Source of the DNA: an uncultured archaeon | Lineage (GTDB): Archaea > Asgardarchaeota > Heimdallarchaeia > Heimdallarchaeales > Kariarchaeaceae | Assembly: GCA_964645535.1 (NCBI GenBank) | Contig: CAZYCQ010000066.1 | Coordinates: forward strand, 1 to 15,700 | Direction of reading: 5' to 3' | DNA: 15,700 nucleotides | In this document: positions 2,544-14,482 of the stretch, one piece after another | Layout: every line of letters starts with the position of its first letter | How positions within the stretch are numbered: the stretch's first letter is position 1 | The notes under the pieces: model-generated | The model's input: only the letters and a program-made list of their open reading frames with translations | Databases searched by the model: none | What the model was told of the DNA's origin: nothing | Position numbers and translations under genes: made by a program

Positions 2544-2633
2544 TCAATCTGAAACACCTTTTTGTCTTAATTAAGGAGTTTGTTTGGACACATGGCCGTC
2601 CTAAAAGGGACTTCAAGTATATCAAATTTGGCA

Positions 2634-2660
2634 TTTACAGGGGAAAGATTTATTAAAAGT
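2634..2660 (+). promoter_or_regulatory. Putative BRE/TATA promoter for the TFE-beta-like gene
   Basis: Purine-rich GGGGAAAGA followed by TTTATTAA (2649-2656). The spacing favours the ATG at 2691 as the start. Confidence 0.55.
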
Positions 2661-2690
2661 GAAATGATGTATTCTGATAGACATCCAAGG

Positions 2691-3146
2691 ATGAGAAATA
2701 GCATGTTTGAAAAAAATAAGAAGTTCTACCTTGATGAAACAGGACATGGGAGGGTCGACACAAAAATTAGCACAACCTTTGAAGAGAACCTTGAACAGGG
2801 CATTCTGGACATGCTTTCAAAATATAAGGTGGCTCCCTTAACCGAGGTTACCCGAAAATTTGGGGATTATCCCCAAGTGCATAACAAACTAAAGGATCTT
2901 GTGCTTGAAAATAAAATCTTCATGTATGAGACAAAGGTTGTGGTCAAAGACCAGCTTAAAATTGAAAAGAAAGTTAAAATTGTCGATCCCAATGCCTCAA
3001 GTTGGAACCCCTTCAATGCACAACCCTGCCTGACCTGTATGATCATGAGCGAGTGCAAGGTCGGCAATCCTGTTTCTCCTGCCACCTGTCAAGAATTTCA
3101 AGAATGGTTGGAATTTGAAATTGAATTGGAAATGCAGAATGAATGA
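2691..3146 (+). CDS. RNA polymerase III RPC34/POLR3F-like protein (archaeal TFE beta subunit): winged helix plus C-terminal 4Fe-4S motif
   Basis: The C-terminus PCLTCMIMSECKVGNPVSPATCQEFQEWLEF has the C-x2-C-x5-C-x10-C spacing and SPxxC-x5-WL tail of the RPC34/TFE-beta FeS domain. The preceding ILDML..LTEVTRKF..VHNKLKDLVLENKI segment looks like a winged helix. The start is uncertain: the ORF track gives TTG 2580, and there are ATGs at 2664, 2667 and 2691. Confidence 0.8.
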   Translation: MRNSMFEKNKKFYLDETGHGRVDTKISTTFEENLEQGILDMLSKYKVAPLTEVTRKFGDYPQVHNKLKDLVLENKIFMYETKVVVKDQLKIEKKVKIVDPNASSWNPFNAQPCLTCMIMSECKVGNPVSPATCQEFQEWLEFEIELEMQNE

Positions 3147-5537: not shown

Positions 5538-6062
5538 ATGGGAAAAAAAGAAATCCAAGCATATGACATATATCTCATCAGAACATCTGGCATTCCTCTT
5601 TTTGCAGGATGTACGCAATCGGACTATTGCATGAGCCATTTGCAGCAACACGAATTGCAGGCAGGGTTTCTTGCGGCAATCAATGCTTTCTCTAAAGAGG
5701 CATTTGAAGATGAAAAGATACATACCATTTACATGGATAACATCCAGATCAATTTCATCGTCAACGAAGAAGATGGTTTGATATTTGCGGTACTTCATGA
5801 CATCAATGCAGATACCGATTTCATCAAGAGACGGCTCAAAGACGCATATGATATTTTCATCTCTCGTTTTCCGGAAGCAAAAGATGAAAACCATCTTGAG
5901 GTAAGCCAATTTGAAGAGGTGACTCATATTCTACGCCAACTTGGTCTTGTAGGAAACAAGCTTGGAAACACTCTTGAAATGCAGTTAATTGAAAAGCAAA
6001 AACAAAGCAAGAGAGGCCGGTTAATGGGATGGATACGAGGTATCATTAGCCCCAGCTACTGA
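5538..6062 (+). CDS. Longin-like domain protein (Asgard type)
   Basis: IYLIRTSGIPLF ... LQAGFLAAINAFSKE ... IHTIYMDNIQINF ... GLIFAVLHD followed by two helices fits the beta-beta-alpha-beta-beta-beta-alpha-alpha longin topology. The tail is basic and amphipathic. Confidence 0.65.
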   Translation: MGKKEIQAYDIYLIRTSGIPLFAGCTQSDYCMSHLQQHELQAGFLAAINAFSKEAFEDEKIHTIYMDNIQINFIVNEEDGLIFAVLHDINADTDFIKRRLKDAYDIFISRFPEAKDENHLEVSQFEEVTHILRQLGLVGNKLGNTLEMQLIEKQKQSKRGRLMGWIRGIISPSY

Positions 6063-6096
6063 AAGATTTTTGTTTCTTGGCAACCTATTCTTAATC

Positions 6097-6984
6097 ATGA
6101 TACGTTATAGCCCGATTGCAGGTTCTTGGTACCCCGCAGACCCTGAGAGTCTCAAAGAAACTATCAATGAACTTTTTCTTGACAAAAAATTTGGTCCGGG
6201 ATATGACCCCAAGGAAGAGAAAAGAAACTGCAATGATCATTTGGTGGGGATAGGTGTTCCTCATGCTGGATATTTCTTCTCTGGTGCTGTGGCTGCCCAC
6301 AGCTATGCCCATCTTTTCAATCATCTTCCGCAAATCGACTCTGCAATTATATTTGGTCCCAATCATCAATTTGGCTATCCATCAATATCCATATTTCCAG
6401 AAGGCCATTGGGAACTCCCTCTCGGGAACGCGGAAATCGACACTGAGTTGGTGGAATTTGCAGAACAATATGAGAACTCTACATTTCATGAGGTTGTACA
6501 GTTTGAAGCTGAATCACAACGATATGAACATTCCATAGAGATTCAAATCCCTTTTCTCCAATATCTTTACGGTTCAAAATTCAAAATCTTGCCAATATGT
6601 TTCGGAAACCAGGATTTCAATCAAACTGGAAAAATTATCTCCCAATTTGTCTATGATTTGCTCATGGAATTCCAGGATCGAAGAATCGCGGTTTTGGCAA
6701 GTTCAGATCTCTCCCATGAACCAGACATCAAGCTCCTTGAAAACAATGATCGGACAATGCTCAAGCTTCTTGAAGAAAACAGATTGGAGGATGCCATTCA
6801 ATTCAGGCAACAGGTCGGCATGACCATGTGCGGTTATGGTCCTGTCTTCACTCTTGCAAATCTGACAAGAAAATTCGGAACACCAAAGAACAAAGTCCTG
6901 AAATATGCGCACAGTTCTGAAATTAGACCGAAACACAGGGGTCCATATACTGTTGGCTATCCTTCATTGGCATTTGAGTTTTAG
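6097..6984 (+). CDS. amrB: MEMO1-family protein (AmmeMemoRadiSam system protein B)
   Basis: Motifs PIAGSWYP, PHAGYFFSG, GPNH, EHSIEIQIPFLQ, SSDLSH, TMCGYGP and VGY. ATG 6097 is preferred over TTG 6070. Confidence 0.93.
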   Translation: MIRYSPIAGSWYPADPESLKETINELFLDKKFGPGYDPKEEKRNCNDHLVGIGVPHAGYFFSGAVAAHSYAHLFNHLPQIDSAIIFGPNHQFGYPSISIFPEGHWELPLGNAEIDTELVEFAEQYENSTFHEVVQFEAESQRYEHSIEIQIPFLQYLYGSKFKILPICFGNQDFNQTGKIISQFVYDLLMEFQDRRIAVLASSDLSHEPDIKLLENNDRTMLKLLEENRLEDAIQFRQQVGMTMCGYGPVFTLANLTRKFGTPKNKVLKYAHSSEIRPKHRGPYTVGYPSLAFEF

Positions 6985-6993
6985 CTGTAGATA

Positions 6994-8094
6994 TTATTCC
7001 CAAGTATAACGGGGAACATCAAAAAGCCGTTTACAGCCGTTTTTTGTTACATACACGTCATCTTCGATCCTTACTCCGAACTTTCCTTCAATATAGATCC
7101 CCGGTTCAATTGTATGAGCAGAACCTCCGATCAAGGGTGTTTGATTGGTTCCTACAAGGTATGGATGCTCATGTACCTCCAATCCAAGTCCATGGCCTAA
7201 TCTGTGTGTGAAATATTTCCCGTATCCTGCCGATTCTATATGACTTCTTGCAATTTTGTCAAGTTCTGCTGGAATTGCTCCTTCACGGTTTGCCTCGAAT
7301 GCTTTTCGGTTTGCTTCAAACACTATATCGTAGATTTCTCTGAATTGATCAGGTGGTGAACCAAATGGCTTGGTTATGGTTATGTCTCCTTGATAGCCAT
7401 TAACATTTGTTCCTACATCCAAAAGGACAACATCTCCTGACTTCAGTTTTCGATCGGTTGGATATCCATGCGGTAAGGCGGAATTTGGTCCAAATTGTAC
7501 CAAGGCATAGGTGATGGGATTGCCTGAACGAGTCCCTAATTCCTCATTCAATATTGGAACCACTTCCTTTTCCGTCATCCCTTCTTTCAACCTGTCAAAG
7601 GTTGCCAAAATTCCCTCAGCAGATGCACGTGCCGCTGCCTTCAGCTGTTCGATCTCCCAATCTGATTTGACCAAACGCAGAGAATCAATAACTGCACCTG
7701 CAGATTTGAAACTCCGATTTGTGTTCCGACTGAGACGTTCCACCTCAATTATCCATAGTTTCGGATCCACTCCCACATTGGATCCGATTTTTCGTTCATC
7801 CAATTCTTTTATGAGGTTTCTGTAGGGAGACTCTGTCTCTTCCCAAACGATGATATCTTCAATTCCAGTTGCCTGCGCAAAATTGGATCGCTCGAAGGCA
7901 GGTGTCAGTAGAAATGGGTCTCCTTCAGCAGGAATTATTCCACAAAGGAACCGCTCAGAAGGGTTTCCCGGTTTACCAAAGAAATACTGAAAATTGACAC
8001 CCAATGGAATAAGAAGGGCATCCCATTCCTCTTTAGACATGACTTCCTGCGCTGCTGTCCATCGACTTTCCAATTCCTCGCGTGGTACATCCAT
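6994..8094 (-). CDS. pepQ: Xaa-Pro dipeptidase/aminopeptidase, M24B family
   Basis: Creatinase-like N-terminal domain. Catalytic-domain motifs SALPHG, DVG..GYQGDITIT, HRLGHGLGLEVHE, TIEPGIY and GVRIEDD. Confidence 0.93.
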   Translation of the reverse strand: MDVPREELESRWTAAQEVMSKEEWDALLIPLGVNFQYFFGKPGNPSERFLCGIIPAEGDPFLLTPAFERSNFAQATGIEDIIVWEETESPYRNLIKELDERKIGSNVGVDPKLWIIEVERLSRNTNRSFKSAGAVIDSLRLVKSDWEIEQLKAAARASAEGILATFDRLKEGMTEKEVVPILNEELGTRSGNPITYALVQFGPNSALPHGYPTDRKLKSGDVVLLDVGTNVNGYQGDITITKPFGSPPDQFREIYDIVFEANRKAFEANREGAIPAELDKIARSHIESAGYGKYFTHRLGHGLGLEVHEHPYLVGTNQTPLIGGSAHTIEPGIYIEGKFGVRIEDDVYVTKNGCKRLFDVPRYTWE

Positions 8095-8187
8095 AAATTA
8101 CCATTAGACTGTCCCTTCTTAAACTACTCGGACCCTGAGGCAAAAATGCATTTAATTTCTTTTATAAAGTTTATCCTTTGTTTAGTT

Positions 8188-8224
8188 TTTACAGGGGAAT
8201 TACTTTTTAATAAGTAAATTCTCC
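8188..8224 (+). promoter_or_regulatory. Putative promoter of the LRR gene, with an overlapping imperfect palindrome
   Basis: TTTACAGGGGAA followed by TTTTTAAT (8204-8211), 24 bp before GTG 8236. Imperfect inverted repeat GGGGAATTACTT...AAGTAAATTCTCC at 8194-8224. Confidence 0.5.
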
Positions 8225-8235
8225 ATTAGTGTTCG

Positions 8236-9396
8236 GTGATTCCCTTGCGGGGGGAGCTATATCCAATCAACTGCAAACACATAATTCCAATCCAACCACA
8301 AGATCTACGAGTAATAGAATACATAAACAAAATCATTGGGGAGACCGGGGATAAAATCAGTCCTCCCGAAAATCAGGATCCCCTCCTCAAACAGATCCTT
8401 TCGTTTCTTCTTCCTGAAAACGCTTTCCATGAGCTAGGAAATTCTCACTATCATGTCATCGTATCCAAAAAAGGGGAAATTGTAGCATTTTTTGCGAAAA
8501 AAATTCTTCCCAATGTTCTTGAACATATTCTCAGACTGAATCATCTCAGGGCATTAAGCATCCAACTTGGAAATGTCATTTTCGACGACCTAGAAAAATG
8601 GTTAACATTGAAACCAATCGAATTCCTACATATTGAAAGCGATGAGACTGTTTTCTCTGATAATCTGCAAATTGCAAACATGCCCTATCTGAAACATCTT
8701 TCCATCAGTTTCAAATCATCACAACCATTAGATATCCAAGGACTAAATAGCTTGGTGTTTCTATCTATCAACGGACCTGATCTGACATTGCATGAGCTCC
8801 CTTCACTCAAAACATTCTGCATCAATGATCTATATAGCTACACCATATTGCACCCTAAAAAATTCCGAAGTCTTGCAACCATTGCCATCCGAAATGCTTA
8901 CGATTTACATGAAAACACATGGCTTCAAGAATTACCAAATCTTCAGGAACTGTATGTCCATAATTCTCCAATTGCAATAGAAACCATAAGCAATCTCTCA
9001 CTCAAAACACTTTCCATCACTGACGTTCTTATGCCAGTTCTTGATATCCCCCCACAAATGGAATTAAAGCATCTCATCATCAATAGATGCAGAGTACAGC
9101 AAATCAAAAATCTTCCCCCATCATTGGAAACACTTGATCTTGCCAACAACCTTATCACACAAATTCCCCCTCTAACTGGGTTTGACAACCTTCAGATTCT
9201 TTCTCTTCAAGACAACAGGATAGATGGCGAAAATACGCCTTCATTCTTTCCACCAAGCCTCAGAATGGTCAACCTTCAAGGAAATCCCATTAAATTCCTA
9301 AATCAGGAGTTTCTGAAGCAACTCAAGGGCATCCCAGTGGTACTTCTGCCAGGAATAATCCCGAACAGCATTCAAGTATCACAAGAAAGTGCCTGA
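8236..9396 (+). CDS. Leucine-rich repeat protein
   Basis: Repeated LxxLxLxxN units: LQELYVHNSPI, LKHLIINRCRV, LETLDLANNLI, LQILSLQDNRI and LRMVNLQGNPI. More degenerate repeats lie N-terminal to these. GTG start, no signal peptide. Confidence 0.88.
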   Translation: MIPLRGELYPINCKHIIPIQPQDLRVIEYINKIIGETGDKISPPENQDPLLKQILSFLLPENAFHELGNSHYHVIVSKKGEIVAFFAKKILPNVLEHILRLNHLRALSIQLGNVIFDDLEKWLTLKPIEFLHIESDETVFSDNLQIANMPYLKHLSISFKSSQPLDIQGLNSLVFLSINGPDLTLHELPSLKTFCINDLYSYTILHPKKFRSLATIAIRNAYDLHENTWLQELPNLQELYVHNSPIAIETISNLSLKTLSITDVLMPVLDIPPQMELKHLIINRCRVQQIKNLPPSLETLDLANNLITQIPPLTGFDNLQILSLQDNRIDGENTPSFFPPSLRMVNLQGNPIKFLNQEFLKQLKGIPVVLLPGIIPNSIQVSQESA

Positions 9397-9437
9397 TCCC
9401 AGAATATAAATACATAAAGTTCCATATTTACCCAAAC

Positions 9438-10535
9438 ATGAATCTCGAACAACAGCTCAGAAAAATGGTGAAACCCTCTCGCTTGTATAAGGAAATTCAC
9501 ACAAACAACCGAAGCTATCTCCAATGCCTTGCATGTGCCCATCAATGCAAAATTGCTCCTGGGAAAAAAGGCATTTGTCAAGTCAGATTTAATGAAGATG
9601 GAAAATTGTATGTACCTTATGGATATATTGCCAGTTGGCAGGTCGATCCTATTGAAAAGAAACCTTTCTTCCATGCATATCCTGGTGCTTCGGCACTTTC
9701 ATATGGAATGCTTGGATGTGATCTGCATTGTTCATACTGCCAAAACTGGCAAATTTCCCAAACCTTGAGAGATGAAAATGCAGGAACAAACCCAATCGAA
9801 GCCACTCCAGAACAAATTGTTGATTCCGCTATCAGATTCGGCGCTAGAGCAGTCGTTTCAACATATAACGAACCTCTGATCACTTCTGAATGGAGCAGGG
9901 ACGTCTTTGAGCTTGCCAAAAAAAACGGTCTCGCTACAGGTTATGTTTCAAATGGAAATGCCACTCCTGAGGTTCTCGATTTTATACGACCTGTCACAGA
10001 CCTCTACAAAATCGACCTAAAGACATTCAACGATAAAAACTACAGAGCATTGGGAACCTCACTTGAAAAAGTCCTTAATGGCATAAAAGAAGTCTATAAG
10101 AGAAAATTTTGGCTTGAGATTGTAACCTTGCTCATTCCTGGTTTCAATGATTCCCCAGAAGAAATCCATCAAATGGCTGAATTTCTTGCCGATATCTCAA
10201 CAGATATCCCTTGGCATATCACTGCATTCCATCCAGACTACAAAATGAACGACAAAAGATATACTTCTGCAAAGGATCTAATCAAAGCAGGAACTATCGC
10301 AAAAGAACATGGAATCAAATTCGTCTATCTTGGCAACATTCGGGGGCTTGAGGATTGGGAAAATACAATCTGTCCCAATTGCAATACAACACTCATCCGG
10401 CGGGATGTCTTCAGAATCAAAGACTATGCAATCACAGAAAAAGGAACCTGCCCTGAATGCAACACCAAAATACCTGGCATATGGGAGAAACCATCAGAAA
10501 GAATATCTGATCTCCCATTTGTGGTAAGATTCTAA
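9438..10535 (+). CDS. amrS: AmmeMemoRadiSam system radical SAM enzyme
   Basis: N-terminal CxxCxHxC..G.C.VR, then DPIEKKPFFH, the radical SAM motif CDLHCSYCQNW, TYNEP, WHITAFHPDYK and YLGN. C-terminal CPNC...CPEC. Confidence 0.95.
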   Translation: MNLEQQLRKMVKPSRLYKEIHTNNRSYLQCLACAHQCKIAPGKKGICQVRFNEDGKLYVPYGYIASWQVDPIEKKPFFHAYPGASALSYGMLGCDLHCSYCQNWQISQTLRDENAGTNPIEATPEQIVDSAIRFGARAVVSTYNEPLITSEWSRDVFELAKKNGLATGYVSNGNATPEVLDFIRPVTDLYKIDLKTFNDKNYRALGTSLEKVLNGIKEVYKRKFWLEIVTLLIPGFNDSPEEIHQMAEFLADISTDIPWHITAFHPDYKMNDKRYTSAKDLIKAGTIAKEHGIKFVYLGNIRGLEDWENTICPNCNTTLIRRDVFRIKDYAITEKGTCPECNTKIPGIWEKPSERISDLPFVVRF

Positions 10536-10578: not shown

Positions 10579-10602
10579 TCAAATTCCTCAAAAAAATTAA
10601 CT

Positions 10603-10687
10603 GCCGGGATCGCCCAGCCTGGTCAACGGCGAAGGACTTAAGATCCTTTCTCATTGGAGTTCGTGGGTTCAAATCCCACTCCCGGCA
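10603..10687 (+). tRNA. tRNA-Leu(TAA), intronless, CCA not encoded
   Basis: Acceptor stem GCCGGGA/TCCCGGC with discriminator A. D arm GCC..TGG..GGC. Anticodon arm AAGGA-CTTAAGA-TCCTT with TAA at 10639-10641. Long variable arm CTC-ATTG-GAG. T arm GTGGG-TTCAAAT-CCCAC. Confidence 0.96.
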
Positions 10688-10693
10688 TCTTCT

Positions 10694-10832: not shown

Positions 10833-10852
10833 TTGTAGGAACTATTGTTTTG

Positions 10853-12466
10853 ATGAGTTTGATTGAAGCTCTCCGGAGAGGAGAAAAAGAGGCTTTTGGC
10901 CAATTAGATACCATGGAGCCGTCCTTGATAACTTCCAACCTTTCAGAGCTAATCGAAATTGCTTTGAAGCAGCAAGACCGCATGAATTCTTTTAATCTTC
11001 TTCGTAAAATTCATGAAGTACTCCAATCGGATCCTGTTTCACTTGAGGAAAATTTTGAAAGGATAGTGGATCTGATTAAACGAATTGTTGACATGGATTT
11101 ACCTGAGGATGACTTATTGAATAGTTCTGGTACGATGTTTCTTACCTTAATTCTTCCAAAATTCATGGCAGATCCCAGTATTGTTGATAGGTACGCTGGC
11201 TTTCTCTTGCATTTGATGGCTGTGGGTGGAACATATGGTCAGCTTTCAGCGTCGCCAATCAGTCAGGTTGCCCAGAACCGACCCCAAGTCATTGCTCCAT
11301 ATGTCAAGGAGTTGTTTTCGGCGATCAAGACAGGCAATGATACCCTATTGGTTGCACTTTATGGATTGTATCCCTACAACAAGGAAGGATTTGAAGAGGA
11401 ATTCGAGACTTTAATGGAGCTTTATAAGCTAAAACCTGCCCACAAATCGATCATTCTCAAAGTGATTGGTGATATCGCCACTTCCCGACCTGAGATGATT
11501 AAACCACACCTAGGAACATTTCTCCCCGATCTTTCAGGAATGGGAACCTCTTATCTTGTTCTAAACATTTTTACGGAAGTTGCAAAGGCTGATCCTCATG
11601 CTGTTGAACCTTTCATTGATCGGATTTATGCAGAGGTTGATAATCAACCCCATATGGCCTATTCAGTTCCTAATCTTCTTGGTCTGATTGGACGGGCGCT
11701 CCGCACTGAGGACATGTTGGAGAAATTGGTTGTCCTTATGCGTAAGGTTCCAGAAGAGGCCTTACCAATGGTTTTGGCAGAAATTCGTAACCTTGGAGAG
11801 ATGGACACATCCTTATTGGATCCATACATTACGGAAATCAAGAAATTAGAAAATCATCAGCAGGAAGGTGTGCGTGATCAGGCAAGAATGGTTGTTGATT
11901 TATATGAGGGGAGATCATTACGAACTCTTGAGCTTTCAATTGAGGAGCAAAACCGCCGGATAAGTGAGGCTGTTCAAAGCACAGAGGATCTACGTAGATA
12001 TGTGGATGAGAATGTTTCAGAATTGAAGGACTTCATTGCACAGATCAACAAAAAACTTCCCATTCCCAAACGTTTTTCGACTCGGGGAAAGATTCGTAAG
12101 ACCCTTATCCTTGAATTTGTCTGTGATGGAGGTTCTCCCAACTGTCTTTTCCCAGATGAACGTCCTTTTACGACAGAGACGAAAGATTGGAACAAATGGT
12201 TGAAAATTGCCTTTTCAGGAATTAAGTTGGGTAAGAGTCTCATAGTACCTGCTAGTGCTGGTGATGCAATCAGTGCAGTCAAGGATGCCTATGATGCATA
12301 CAAGGAGAAATATGACAAGGATTTCTTATCATATATCAAGGAGCCTTTCTTGACAAGTGCAGAACAAGACAATCTTGTAAACCAACTGCGGGATTCAAAG
12401 TTCTTTAATGTGTTCAGTTATGATGCTCAGACTGCCAATTGGGTTTGCACCATGTGCAGTCTATGA
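10853..12466 (+). CDS. HEAT/ARM-repeat protein with coiled coil and C-terminal Cys4 domain; probable Melted/VEPH1 homolog lacking the PH domain
   Basis: Amphipathic helical repeats over about aa 1-355 (e.g. AQNRPQVIAPYVKELF, ATSRPEMIKPHL, AKADPHAVEPFI). Coiled coil at about aa 357-400. The C-terminal domain contains KKLPIP..LEFVC-x6-CLF..W..FFNVFSY..WVCTMC. The VEPH1 similarity is from recalled sequence. Confidence 0.7.
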   Translation: MSLIEALRRGEKEAFGQLDTMEPSLITSNLSELIEIALKQQDRMNSFNLLRKIHEVLQSDPVSLEENFERIVDLIKRIVDMDLPEDDLLNSSGTMFLTLILPKFMADPSIVDRYAGFLLHLMAVGGTYGQLSASPISQVAQNRPQVIAPYVKELFSAIKTGNDTLLVALYGLYPYNKEGFEEEFETLMELYKLKPAHKSIILKVIGDIATSRPEMIKPHLGTFLPDLSGMGTSYLVLNIFTEVAKADPHAVEPFIDRIYAEVDNQPHMAYSVPNLLGLIGRALRTEDMLEKLVVLMRKVPEEALPMVLAEIRNLGEMDTSLLDPYITEIKKLENHQQEGVRDQARMVVDLYEGRSLRTLELSIEEQNRRISEAVQSTEDLRRYVDENVSELKDFIAQINKKLPIPKRFSTRGKIRKTLILEFVCDGGSPNCLFPDERPFTTETKDWNKWLKIAFSGIKLGKSLIVPASAGDAISAVKDAYDAYKEKYDKDFLSYIKEPFLTSAEQDNLVNQLRDSKFFNVFSYDAQTANWVCTMCSL

Positions 12467-12472
12467 TGTCTT

Positions 12473-14482
12473 TTAAATTCGTATTTTCCGATACTTCCTA
12501 ATTATGACAATGGTGGCAAAAGAAACAAGAAACGGCCAAACTTGGATTGGAATTCCCTCATCGGGAACTTCTTCGTTTTCCAGAGGTGAGGGTTGCCAAT
12601 TGAAATCCCAATTCTGTGCCTGTAAGCTTGAGGGTACTGAATCCTTATTCTGATTAAGAAATTCCTTAATGGAACCGATTGCTCGATCATATTCATTTGG
12701 TTCCCTCTCAAATTGTGTTACTGAAGAAACCAATTTCATCGCAGCATCAATTAAATTCTGGGTCTCCTGTTGGTTTCCAAGATTCGCCTCTTCAAGAGTC
12801 TTGATGTACTTATAATCCTCAATTCCCAATCTGAAGAGTTCAAGGCGTAATGATGATACTGGTTGTATGGTGTCTTTCTGTGTACTGTGTTCATCGACGA
12901 GGGTTCCCGGATAGACGAGGAACCCATCTCCATTTTGAGCAACTGTAGACCCACGTATTCTGAGTGCAGGACTATCAACATAGGGGTCAATGATTTGATC
13001 TGTTTGCGAGTTGTACCACGCCATAGCTGCCCAAAAGTTTACCCCTGCCAAGTTATATTTGTAGACAATCCATGGAAGAATACGGGAAAAAAGTGCTGGA
13101 TTGACAATACCTGCAACAGATGGAAATTCATAGTCCTTCTTTTGGATGCCTGGGGGATACTCTTCTTCATCTTCTGGAAGTTTCAATGCGGTCCAAGCCT
13201 GCTCATAGGCGGTCACCTTTGCGTTTCTTTTGATTGCATCATTGATGAATTGTGTGTCCCACTCAATATCTTCCTGTGGTGCAGACCAAGCAGTAAATTT
13301 ATCGTTCAAAGGTTCCCAACCTGATGTGTCGGTTTCAAGATCGAATTGGACAATTGGAGAATCCCAATCGATGGTTCCATCCACACGATAATGAAATTGA
13401 ACTTGGTCATTTCCTGCTTCATGTGTCAGAAGAGCATATTTTGCAATAAGCCATGCCTTTTCAGCGGTATCAGGTTCATCCAAATCGTCAATCCAGACCA
13501 ACCATTGGATATCTGTCATTCCATTTGAAACGACAAAATCGCGAAACTGCTGGAGAAAATCGGTATATGATTGGAAAGAATCGTCAGTTGCAGCCTCTTC
13601 AACTTCAAATCCCAGAACCTCTCCAAAATTGACAGGAACTCGTACAACCGGTGTGCTAAAATATTCTGAATAGATACTGAGCAACGGGTCAATGCTGTTC
13701 TTCCAATCATCGAAATTCCATTGACCGTTATCATAAGATGGAAGAACTCCCATCGCGTCAATAGTGTCGCTTGCAAGGATTCCGCGTTTGGCAAAGAATT
13801 CAACATAATCCATAGATATCTGATCTAATTCCTTACTTGTGGACGTGAATTGTTCCAACTCCCAAAGATCAAGATATGCTGGATTATAGAGTGGGTTTTT
13901 TAGAGGAATTGTGAAATCCAATACTTGAATGCTTACCTGAATTGAACCAGTGATTCCGCCAGAGAAATCAATCGAACCACTGTATGTTCCAGCTGGTGTA
14001 TCTGAAGGGATTATGACCTCTACCCATATGGGTTGATTTTTCGACCCCTCAACATCAAATGGCTCTGTCAGTGGAAGTAAAGCATCAGGATAAAGTCCCA
14101 ACTGATAATCATTGACGGATTCAAAGAGGGTTTCTTCCCTGACATTCACATAGTATTCCAAATATAGATTGATTGCCTTATCTGGAAGGTTGTTGTTGCC
14201 AGAAGAAAAAGTTCCGACATTGGCAGTAATCCCACTCAACGCTTGTGAAGGGGAAAGAACAACTTGAAATGCCCCAAATCCTCCTTTAGCTAAGGATAGT
14301 GAAACTGTTTGGTTTCCTTGAGGAAGGGTGGACAAGATACCAGACTGATCTTGAAATATTTTGGTGGTGGCATGTGTTGCCCAAATTTGCTGAGCCAAAA
14401 TCCCTATCGGTTCAGAATTGCTCTGCTGAAGCGGAACTATGGGTAAAAGTAGTATGAACAGAAAAGGAATGAGTAATCGCAT
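12473..14482 (-). CDS. Secreted, C-terminally membrane-anchored glycoside hydrolase (GH123-like, DUF4091 C-terminal domain)
   Basis: Signal peptide MRLLIPFLFILLLP. Motifs YPDALLP, NQPIWVEV.IP.DTPAGTYSG and LDEP. DUF4091 signature NGDGFLVYPG...PVSSLRLELFRLGIEDY. C-terminal TM helix followed by RKYRK. Confidence 0.8.
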   Translation of the reverse strand: MRLLIPFLFILLLPIVPLQQSNSEPIGILAQQIWATHATTKIFQDQSGILSTLPQGNQTVSLSLAKGGFGAFQVVLSPSQALSGITANVGTFSSGNNNLPDKAINLYLEYYVNVREETLFESVNDYQLGLYPDALLPLTEPFDVEGSKNQPIWVEVIIPSDTPAGTYSGSIDFSGGITGSIQVSIQVLDFTIPLKNPLYNPAYLDLWELEQFTSTSKELDQISMDYVEFFAKRGILASDTIDAMGVLPSYDNGQWNFDDWKNSIDPLLSIYSEYFSTPVVRVPVNFGEVLGFEVEEAATDDSFQSYTDFLQQFRDFVVSNGMTDIQWLVWIDDLDEPDTAEKAWLIAKYALLTHEAGNDQVQFHYRVDGTIDWDSPIVQFDLETDTSGWEPLNDKFTAWSAPQEDIEWDTQFINDAIKRNAKVTAYEQAWTALKLPEDEEEYPPGIQKKDYEFPSVAGIVNPALFSRILPWIVYKYNLAGVNFWAAMAWYNSQTDQIIDPYVDSPALRIRGSTVAQNGDGFLVYPGTLVDEHSTQKDTIQPVSSLRLELFRLGIEDYKYIKTLEEANLGNQQETQNLIDAAMKLVSSVTQFEREPNEYDRAIGSIKEFLNQNKDSVPSSLQAQNWDFNWQPSPLENEEVPDEGIPIQVWPFLVSFATIVIIRKYRKIRI

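Follow-up and report, generated by a model that had tools for sequence, protein, structure and literature searches.

The window analysed here, a 15,700-nt stretch that constitutes an entire contig of an Asgard archaeal genome (3.6 Mb, 89% complete, 1% contaminated), carries a gene whose product is, judging from profile and fold comparisons, almost certainly a true homolog of VEPH1/Melted. As it has no C-terminal PH domain, it is classed as a PH-less homolog and not as VEPH1 proper. Taken as a whole, the observations are best explained by an archaeal VEPH1/Melted scaffold in which a HEAT solenoid is followed by a coiled-coil stalk and then a cysteine core domain (probability roughly 0.55).

Results

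The single-copy ORF starts at TTG 10850 or ATG 10853; two Met open close relatives, making the upstream start plausible (Table 1). An AlphaFold model places 19 helices over residues 3–352 (block pLDDT 84–95) and three long helices over residues 354–401, followed by a mixed alpha/beta C-domain that, when refolded with a deeper alignment, gave pLDDT 80.5 and pTM 0.76. The model and the cysteine conservation bear out the architecture proposed in a preliminary description of this DNA (HEAT/ARM repeats, coiled coil, Cys4 C-terminal domain). The solenoid, with a net charge of -19, matches the N-terminal Armadillo-like region of VEPH1/Melted, while the coiled coil is longer in protists and is replaced in animals by a linker that does not align. 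The C-domain, which has no name and is called the Melted core here, is the best-conserved portion of the protein. Its four cysteines (C424, C431, C532 and C535) are invariant across 28 prokaryotic homologs and at least 90% conserved once eukaryotes are added, with C424 invariant in all groups and C431 present in at least 90%; they are likely to bind Zn. The helix at residues 446–464 has a hydrophobic moment in the 91–94th percentile of the protein, residues 401–465 carry a net charge of +7, and the helix could conceivably contact a membrane or a partner. No transmembrane segment and no PH match were found in the protein, which stops two residues past its last cysteine. Pfam, NCBIfam and PDB sequence searches returned nothing significant, PDB structure matches to the whole model (Foldseek) were generic ARM/HEAT proteins only, and searches of solved structures with the C-domain gave a best Z of 3.2 and no Foldseek match under E 0.1, which does not in itself establish a new fold. 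A promoter scan, built for bacterial promoters, remained at chance level.

Table 1 Coordinates of the archaeal VEPH1/Melted homolog, its neighbours and related loci
Feature	Locus	Position	Strand	Evidence or remark
Gene for PH-less VEPH1/Melted homolog	window	10850..12466	+	intact ORF, 537–538 aa
HEAT/ARM alpha-solenoid, residues 1–352	window	10853..11908	+	model; generic ARM/HEAT Foldseek matches; animal profile domain, E=2.5e-28
Coiled-coil helices, residues 354–401; predicted self-association stalk	window	11912..12055	+	model and alignments
Melted core C-domain, residues 402–537	window	12056..12463	+	conservation, profiles, model
First cysteine pair C424/C431, probable Zn site	window	12122..12145	+	conservation
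Basic amphipathic helix, residues 446–464, invariant W449	window	12188..12244	+	hydrophobic moment and charge
Second cysteine pair C532/C535, W-x-C-x-x-C knuckle	window	12446..12457	+	conservation
RPC34/TFE-beta-like protein with cysteine-rich tail	window	2580-3146		Pfam E 4e-4
Stand-alone longin-like protein	window	5538-6062		weak Intu/Fuz longin matches, E 0.002-0.045
Memo (AmmeMemoRadiSam B) and AmmeMemoRadiSam radical SAM genes	window	6070-10535		PepQ and LRR gene between them
tRNA-Leu(TAA)	window	10602-10689	+	160 bases 5′ of the VEPH1/Melted-like gene
GH123-like glycoside hydrolase	window	12473-14482		convergent; likely signal peptide and C-terminal anchor
Full-length bacterial copy	L010	4852-6495
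Full-length bacterial copy	L011	4825-6495
Decayed remnant, Asgard	L030	3508-3834
Decayed remnant, Asgard	L031	3366-3709
Decayed remnant, Asgard	L032	3789-4004
Decayed remnant, Asgard	L034	3560-3643
Decayed remnant, Asgard	L035	3438-3614
TPR protein with divergent core, Asgard	L026	4174-6039
TPR protein with divergent core, Asgard	L027	4034-5908
FG-GAP/Ig protein with divergent core, Asgard	L029	856-8247		2463 aa
LRR-Roc-COR gene with terminal Melted core (P0129)	L046	364-3404		frameshift near 1890-1905
Second Roco with terminal Melted core (P0118)	L045	133-2295
Divergent full-length homolog (P0102)	L038	1123-2673		gene-dense 34% GC contig

A profile built from the 28 prokaryotic sequences only, with which 1.84 billion proteins were searched with no word filter applied, yielded 131 matches at E≤1e-30 and recovered shark VEPH1 (7.2e-35), spider Melted (3.2e-53) and damselfly Melted (6e-47), as well as sea-urchin and hemichordate VEPH1; a word-based search from the single archaeal protein recovered no animal sequence, the profile search alone finding these. 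In reverse, an animal-only profile with the PH domain removed ranked the ORF first among 18,461 ORFs of the window's genome, at E=6e-60 with the runner-up at 0.22, the cysteine core (E=1.4e-28) scoring alongside the solenoid (Table 1). The match is therefore reciprocal against named animal orthologs and goes beyond generic HEAT similarity. hhalign of the archaeal and animal profiles gave a probability of 100% (E=1.7e-50, 478 columns), the top two Atlas matches to the predicted structure of the whole protein are VEPH1, and for the C-domain the top Atlas match is Melted, on which its model superposes with TM 0.74 (rmsd 2.5 Å over 154 residues). Unrelated long HEAT-repeat proteins also score on both profiles (e.g. 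P0110, 4e-34 against the animal profile) and lack the C-domain, making the non-repeat C-domain the decisive evidence. Separate HEAT and C-domain profiles each match animal proteins, in the correct order, the C-domain by itself scoring 58–93 bits, and 16 core positions are conserved across all groups. One dinoflagellate match is called ‘Protein melted-like’ in UniRef.

The five colinear blocks that the preliminary description had drawn against human VEPH1 are present at residues 157–173, 235–255, 307–314, 386–405 plus 420–433, and 512–535. In comparisons with shark and bird proteins, all five have counterparts in matching order in shark VEPH1 (P0161), as do four of them in bird VEPH1 (P0178), and the hhalign alignment is in register. 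Two further details of that account were upheld: the archaeal end falls at about residue 700 of the shark protein, whose PH domain starts at 715, and the short coiled coil stands where animals have a long linker, for which hhalign found no aligned counterpart.

Housekeeping genes of archaeal type (Trm1, RPC34-like, DUF61 and PepQ) neighbour the intronless VEPH1/Melted-like gene, along with genes for a longin-like protein, an LRR protein and tRNA-Leu. In an independent assembly, a 201-kb contig retains the upstream gene order and an 84%-identical copy. The order of the Memo and radical SAM genes is retained in L043, where the interval between the radical-SAM gene and the VEPH1/Melted-like gene is ~0.9 kb longer than in the window; the GH123-like gene is swapped for other genes in the close relatives L001 and L043. 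In a Heimdallarchaeota chromosome record of 4.9 Mb, another copy lies near a secY-like gene. GC3 and codon use lie at the 46th and 13th percentiles of the genome, and the tetranucleotide profile of the contig is typical. Archaeal neighbours, synteny and composition agree in placing the contig in an archaeon, and contamination is excluded for practical purposes. The upstream tRNA-Leu was considered as a sign of a mobile element and set aside, since composition is ordinary. No neighbouring gene recurs outside close relatives, and an operon or partner read from gene context was accordingly rejected.

A pattern-seeded scan of 185,579 species genomes found 13 archaeal loci (11 named as Asgard) and 2 bacterial ones; homologs are thus not widespread in bacteria. 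In the Asgard phylum, 23 of 400 genomes had a match, namely an intact full-length copy in 14, a decayed remnant in about five, a fragment at a contig edge in one and C-domain fusions in three. Twelve of the 14 intact copies belong to the window's own class, and the two largest families of its order and phylum have no intact copy (0/31; one remnant in 135). With so few intact copies, and none in the largest families, inheritance requires very many losses. The remnants come from three families, and those of L034 and L035 occupy the same locus, with the same neighbours, as the intact Thorarchaeota copy in L009, indicating that loss does happen and is in progress. The bacterial full-length copies (Planctomycetota, L010, and Myxococcales, L011) are on long contigs with 72% and 54% GC, and the Myxococcales copy occurs in one of six genomes of its family.

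The C-domain is also found without the solenoid: at the end of Roco GTPases, after TPR repeats, in an FG-GAP/Ig protein and in a Helarchaeota LVIVD protein (P0156). Both TPR proteins (L026, L027) have a divergent core with extra cysteines, are encoded inside a TPR gene cluster and share with L028 and P0156 a middle region that appears adaptin-appendage-like by eye. The FG-GAP/Ig protein (L029) has an N-terminal hydrophobic segment ahead of its FG-GAP and Ig repeats, with the core at its end. LRRs of the Roco gene in L046 are similar, at 36% identity, to LRRs from the window's genome. The full-length homolog P0102 has almost no coiled coil and no close relatives in the protein collection, and is important for rooting the tree.

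Eukaryotic relatives refute the view of VEPH1/Melted as an animal-type family, which is instead pan-eukaryotic and not specific to animals. Named protist homologs are from Capsaspora (two paralogs), Diphylleia, Filamoeba, Cavostelium, Polykrikos, Durusdinium and Phaeomonas, so that named members span animals, Filasterea, CRuMs, Amoebozoa, dinoflagellates and one stramenopile; fungi and plants are not among the named matches of these untargeted searches. Core identity of the archaeal protein averages ~43% to non-animal eukaryotes (43–52% to protists) and only ~23% to animals, and identity to animals over the HEAT part is ~18%; animals are the fast-evolving branch of the family. The protist values come near the 58% found between Asgard classes, a point against an Asgard origin. 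Protist homologs are missing from the account in the sole VEPH1 review, of 2019, which has the gene ‘emerged with pseudocoelomates’ and lists Armadillo-like and PH as its only domains (PMC6734325).

What follows the core differs between groups. In animals it is a PH domain in 24 of 27 proteins. The 74 presumed-eukaryotic non-animal homologs (many, like most of the CaaX-bearing ones, without an organism name, and including the Roco fusions P0118 and P0129 of probably prokaryotic origin) have PH in 16, FYVE in 4 and a CaaX box in 16, the last expected by chance at 0.0016 per terminus; the CaaX-bearing sequences are akin and thus do not represent 16 independent events. Both PH and FYVE occur in Capsaspora (CAOG_05957 and CAOG_04144, respectively), and 45 of 46 prokaryotic homologs have no tail. 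PH, FYVE and CaaX prenylation all direct proteins to membranes, and three such tail types behind the core suggest that the scaffold works at the cytosolic membrane face. The earlier proposal that the PH domain was a later addition needs amending in that PH is just one of three alternative membrane-targeting tails. Other arrangements include a fusion between a protein kinase and a core domain whose cysteines have been lost (P0164) and a stramenopile protein that contains multiple core domains and terminates in CaaX (P0072), in the same cluster as P0229 of Phaeomonas.

In a full-length tree (LG+C20; 56 sequences; 460 columns of HEAT and core, linker and tails excluded), the main prokaryotic group forms one side of a branch (96/99) and animals group, as expected, with Capsaspora and Diphylleia (88/79). 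Within the prokaryotic group, a Thor-group clade (100/99) and a clade of most own-family copies (98/97) appear, and the bacterial copies lie inside this Asgard-dominated group, pairing at 87/85 in a polytomy. The best tree puts the prokaryotic group beside a Cavostelium-like (amoebozoan) sequence (82/85) on a short stem (0.23), diversity is greater among eukaryote sequences than within the prokaryotic group, and rooting on P0102, the lone prokaryotic-type outlier, makes eukaryotes paraphyletic. AU tests rejected prokaryotes plus animals (p=0.009) and did not reject eukaryote monophyly (p=0.16). The archaeal sequence is therefore neither nested in nor sister to animals, and the trees exclude an animal source of the gene. 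The most divergent C-domain versions are the Asgard fusions; in a C-domain tree rooted on them, 26 protist sequences form a clade (84/88) that falls within a polytomy including Asgard lineages, with eukaryote monophyly at p=0.24. A C-domain-only FastTree that placed animals among prokaryotes was dismissed as long-branch attraction.

A three-copy model of residues 356–537 associates through the coiled coil and core with a score of 0.63 (best control 0.00). Among solved homo-pairs 20 of 30 attained this mark, against 1 of 23 single chains, and its calibration is only approximate for three copies. Contact agreement between runs is at least 0%, with a pLDDT of 73 or more; the copy number was chosen by the analyst, and coiled coils dock easily. 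On this modelling, the protein is probably an oligomeric scaffold, and the repeated appearance of the coil and core together as the terminal part of otherwise unrelated proteins fits an oligomerisation module.

Discussion

In the proposed mechanism, stalk and core would self-associate (a trimer was modelled), a Zn ion held by the four cysteines would steady the core, and several HEAT arms would be displayed outward for binding of partner proteins, by analogy with the N-terminal region of human VEPH1, which binds ALK5 (PMC6734325). The archaeal form may reach the membrane through partners or through the basic amphipathic helix, a membrane-proximal role in the archaeon being a tentative suggestion. 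The gene would go back to an Asgard ancestor common to the Heimdall and Thor groups, from which the eukaryote stem would have received it; most Asgard lineages would have lost it, and a few bacteria would have acquired it by transfer. Immediately after the core, eukaryotes would have attached membrane-targeting devices of at least three unrelated kinds: PH, FYVE (alone or with ankyrin repeats) and CaaX. The fullest version of this history is speculative and rather doubtful as a package: a tail-less HEAT-coil-Zn oligomer inherited from an Asgard ancestor, its core an undescribed Asgard oligomerisation module also used in Roco and TPR proteins, and membranes reached several times via PH, FYVE and CaaX.

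An Asgard origin of the gene seems reasonably probable, because Thor-group and own-family clades appear, remnants are syntenic with the Thor copy, divergent C-domains are Asgard and eukaryote monophyly is not rejected. The earlier claim that the core predates eukaryotes goes no further than being allowed by both trees, and is weakened by the amoebozoan neighbour in the best full-length tree and by the 14 intact copies in 400 genomes. These same two observations, together with the short stem, the greater diversity of eukaryote sequences and the gene mobility evident from the two bacterial copies, would suit an ancient transfer in which a stem or early eukaryote gave the gene to a single Asgard lineage, with the tail lost or not yet gained, and then spread to Heimdall and Thor groups and a few bacteria; Forterre (PMC12395588) argues for such a route for patchy eukaryotic signature proteins (ESPs) generally. 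We regard it as a credible though somewhat improbable alternative, given that the C-domain fusions of greater divergence come from Asgard or Asgard-like sources, that monophyly of eukaryotes is not rejected, that syntenic decay shows loss to be real and that the amoebozoan sister position has a support of 82/85 only. Such a transfer would leave the homology intact, though it would no longer be evidence of pre-eukaryotic origin.

Origin in bacteria, followed by entry into both Asgard archaea and eukaryotes, could draw on the full-length copies on long contigs in one Myxococcales and one Planctomycetota genome and on their pairing, albeit in an unresolved fork; it is very unlikely in view of the 2 bacterial against 13 archaeal loci, the single Myxococcales genome among six and the position of both copies within the Asgard-dominated group. 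Generic HEAT resemblance might account for the scores of proteins such as P0110 and for the generic PDB matches to the whole model, but not for a C-domain that alone matches animals in sequence and fold and is lacking from those HEAT proteins; a eukaryotic contaminant is at odds with an intronless gene amid archaeal-type genes and syntenic in an independent assembly, and a recent transfer from animals with the rejected archaeal-plus-animal grouping. The separate C-domain match and the synteny refute this set of explanations, whose probability is negligible.

Literature searches found no paper joining VEPH1 with Asgard archaea or Melted with ESPs. VEPH1/Melted is unmentioned in the main text of PMC12962969 and bioRxiv 2026.10.28.762692, and is absent from the accessible parts of the supplements of bioRxiv 2024.07.03.601958, PMC10307638 and PMC12872458, in which an unnamed listing is possible; family motifs were not found in the accessible part of the Eme 2023 supplement. 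To that extent, the expectation that the family is new to Asgard ESP lists stands. The family is broad in eukaryotes and present in Asgard archaea yet rare in other prokaryotes, and the archaeal protein, a tail-less variant of a known family, is a good ESP candidate among many patchy ones. Its recognition extends VEPH1/Melted to many protist groups and Asgard archaea and exposes a third, unnamed domain as the most conserved part of the family. The compact, linker-less archaeal protein is a practical structure target for the core of a poorly understood, disease-linked human adaptor, and its distribution makes it useful for testing whether patchy ESPs arise through inheritance or through transfer. 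Asgard inheritance with repeated tail gain, if true, would be a clean example of an archaeal scaffold wired to eukaryotic membrane identity. Archaeal TOR, FoxO or Hippo signalling is not implied.

Among known systems, Asgard ESPs of adaptin-like or HEAT type (Adaptin_N, coatomer gamma, INTS4-like) resemble the archaeal VEPH1 homolog in their alpha-solenoid and patchy distribution, and differ in that the latter has no appendage domain and a C-domain specific to the Melted family. Several homologs give weak Adaptin_N matches and the third-best structural match is coatomer gamma (TM 0.50); identification as an adaptin or coatomer large subunit was rejected, as the window's protein has no Adaptin_N match and its C-domain matches Melted and not appendages. 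With Roco proteins (LRR-Roc-COR), of which two metagenomic genes end in the same coiled coil and core, only the C-terminal module is common, the GTPase and LRR parts being absent from the window's protein. VEPH1/Melted itself shares the domain order (Armadillo-like solenoid, then cysteine core) and the predicted core fold, but animal proteins have a PH domain and a linker of ~170–450 residues in place of the archaeal 48-residue coiled coil. Animal members are reported to act as adaptors on TSC1/FoxO, Hippo or the TGF-beta receptor and to be located at the plasma membrane (PMC6734325). Their reported partners TSC1, FoxO and ALK5 (PMC6734325) have no shown archaeal counterpart, and nothing ties the archaeal form to Tsc1, FoxO or Hippo signalling. 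The closest eukaryotic relatives are the uncharacterised protist Melted-like proteins, which keep HEAT repeats, coiled coil and core and differ from the archaeal protein in carrying a PH, FYVE (with ankyrin repeats in some), CaaX or other tail.
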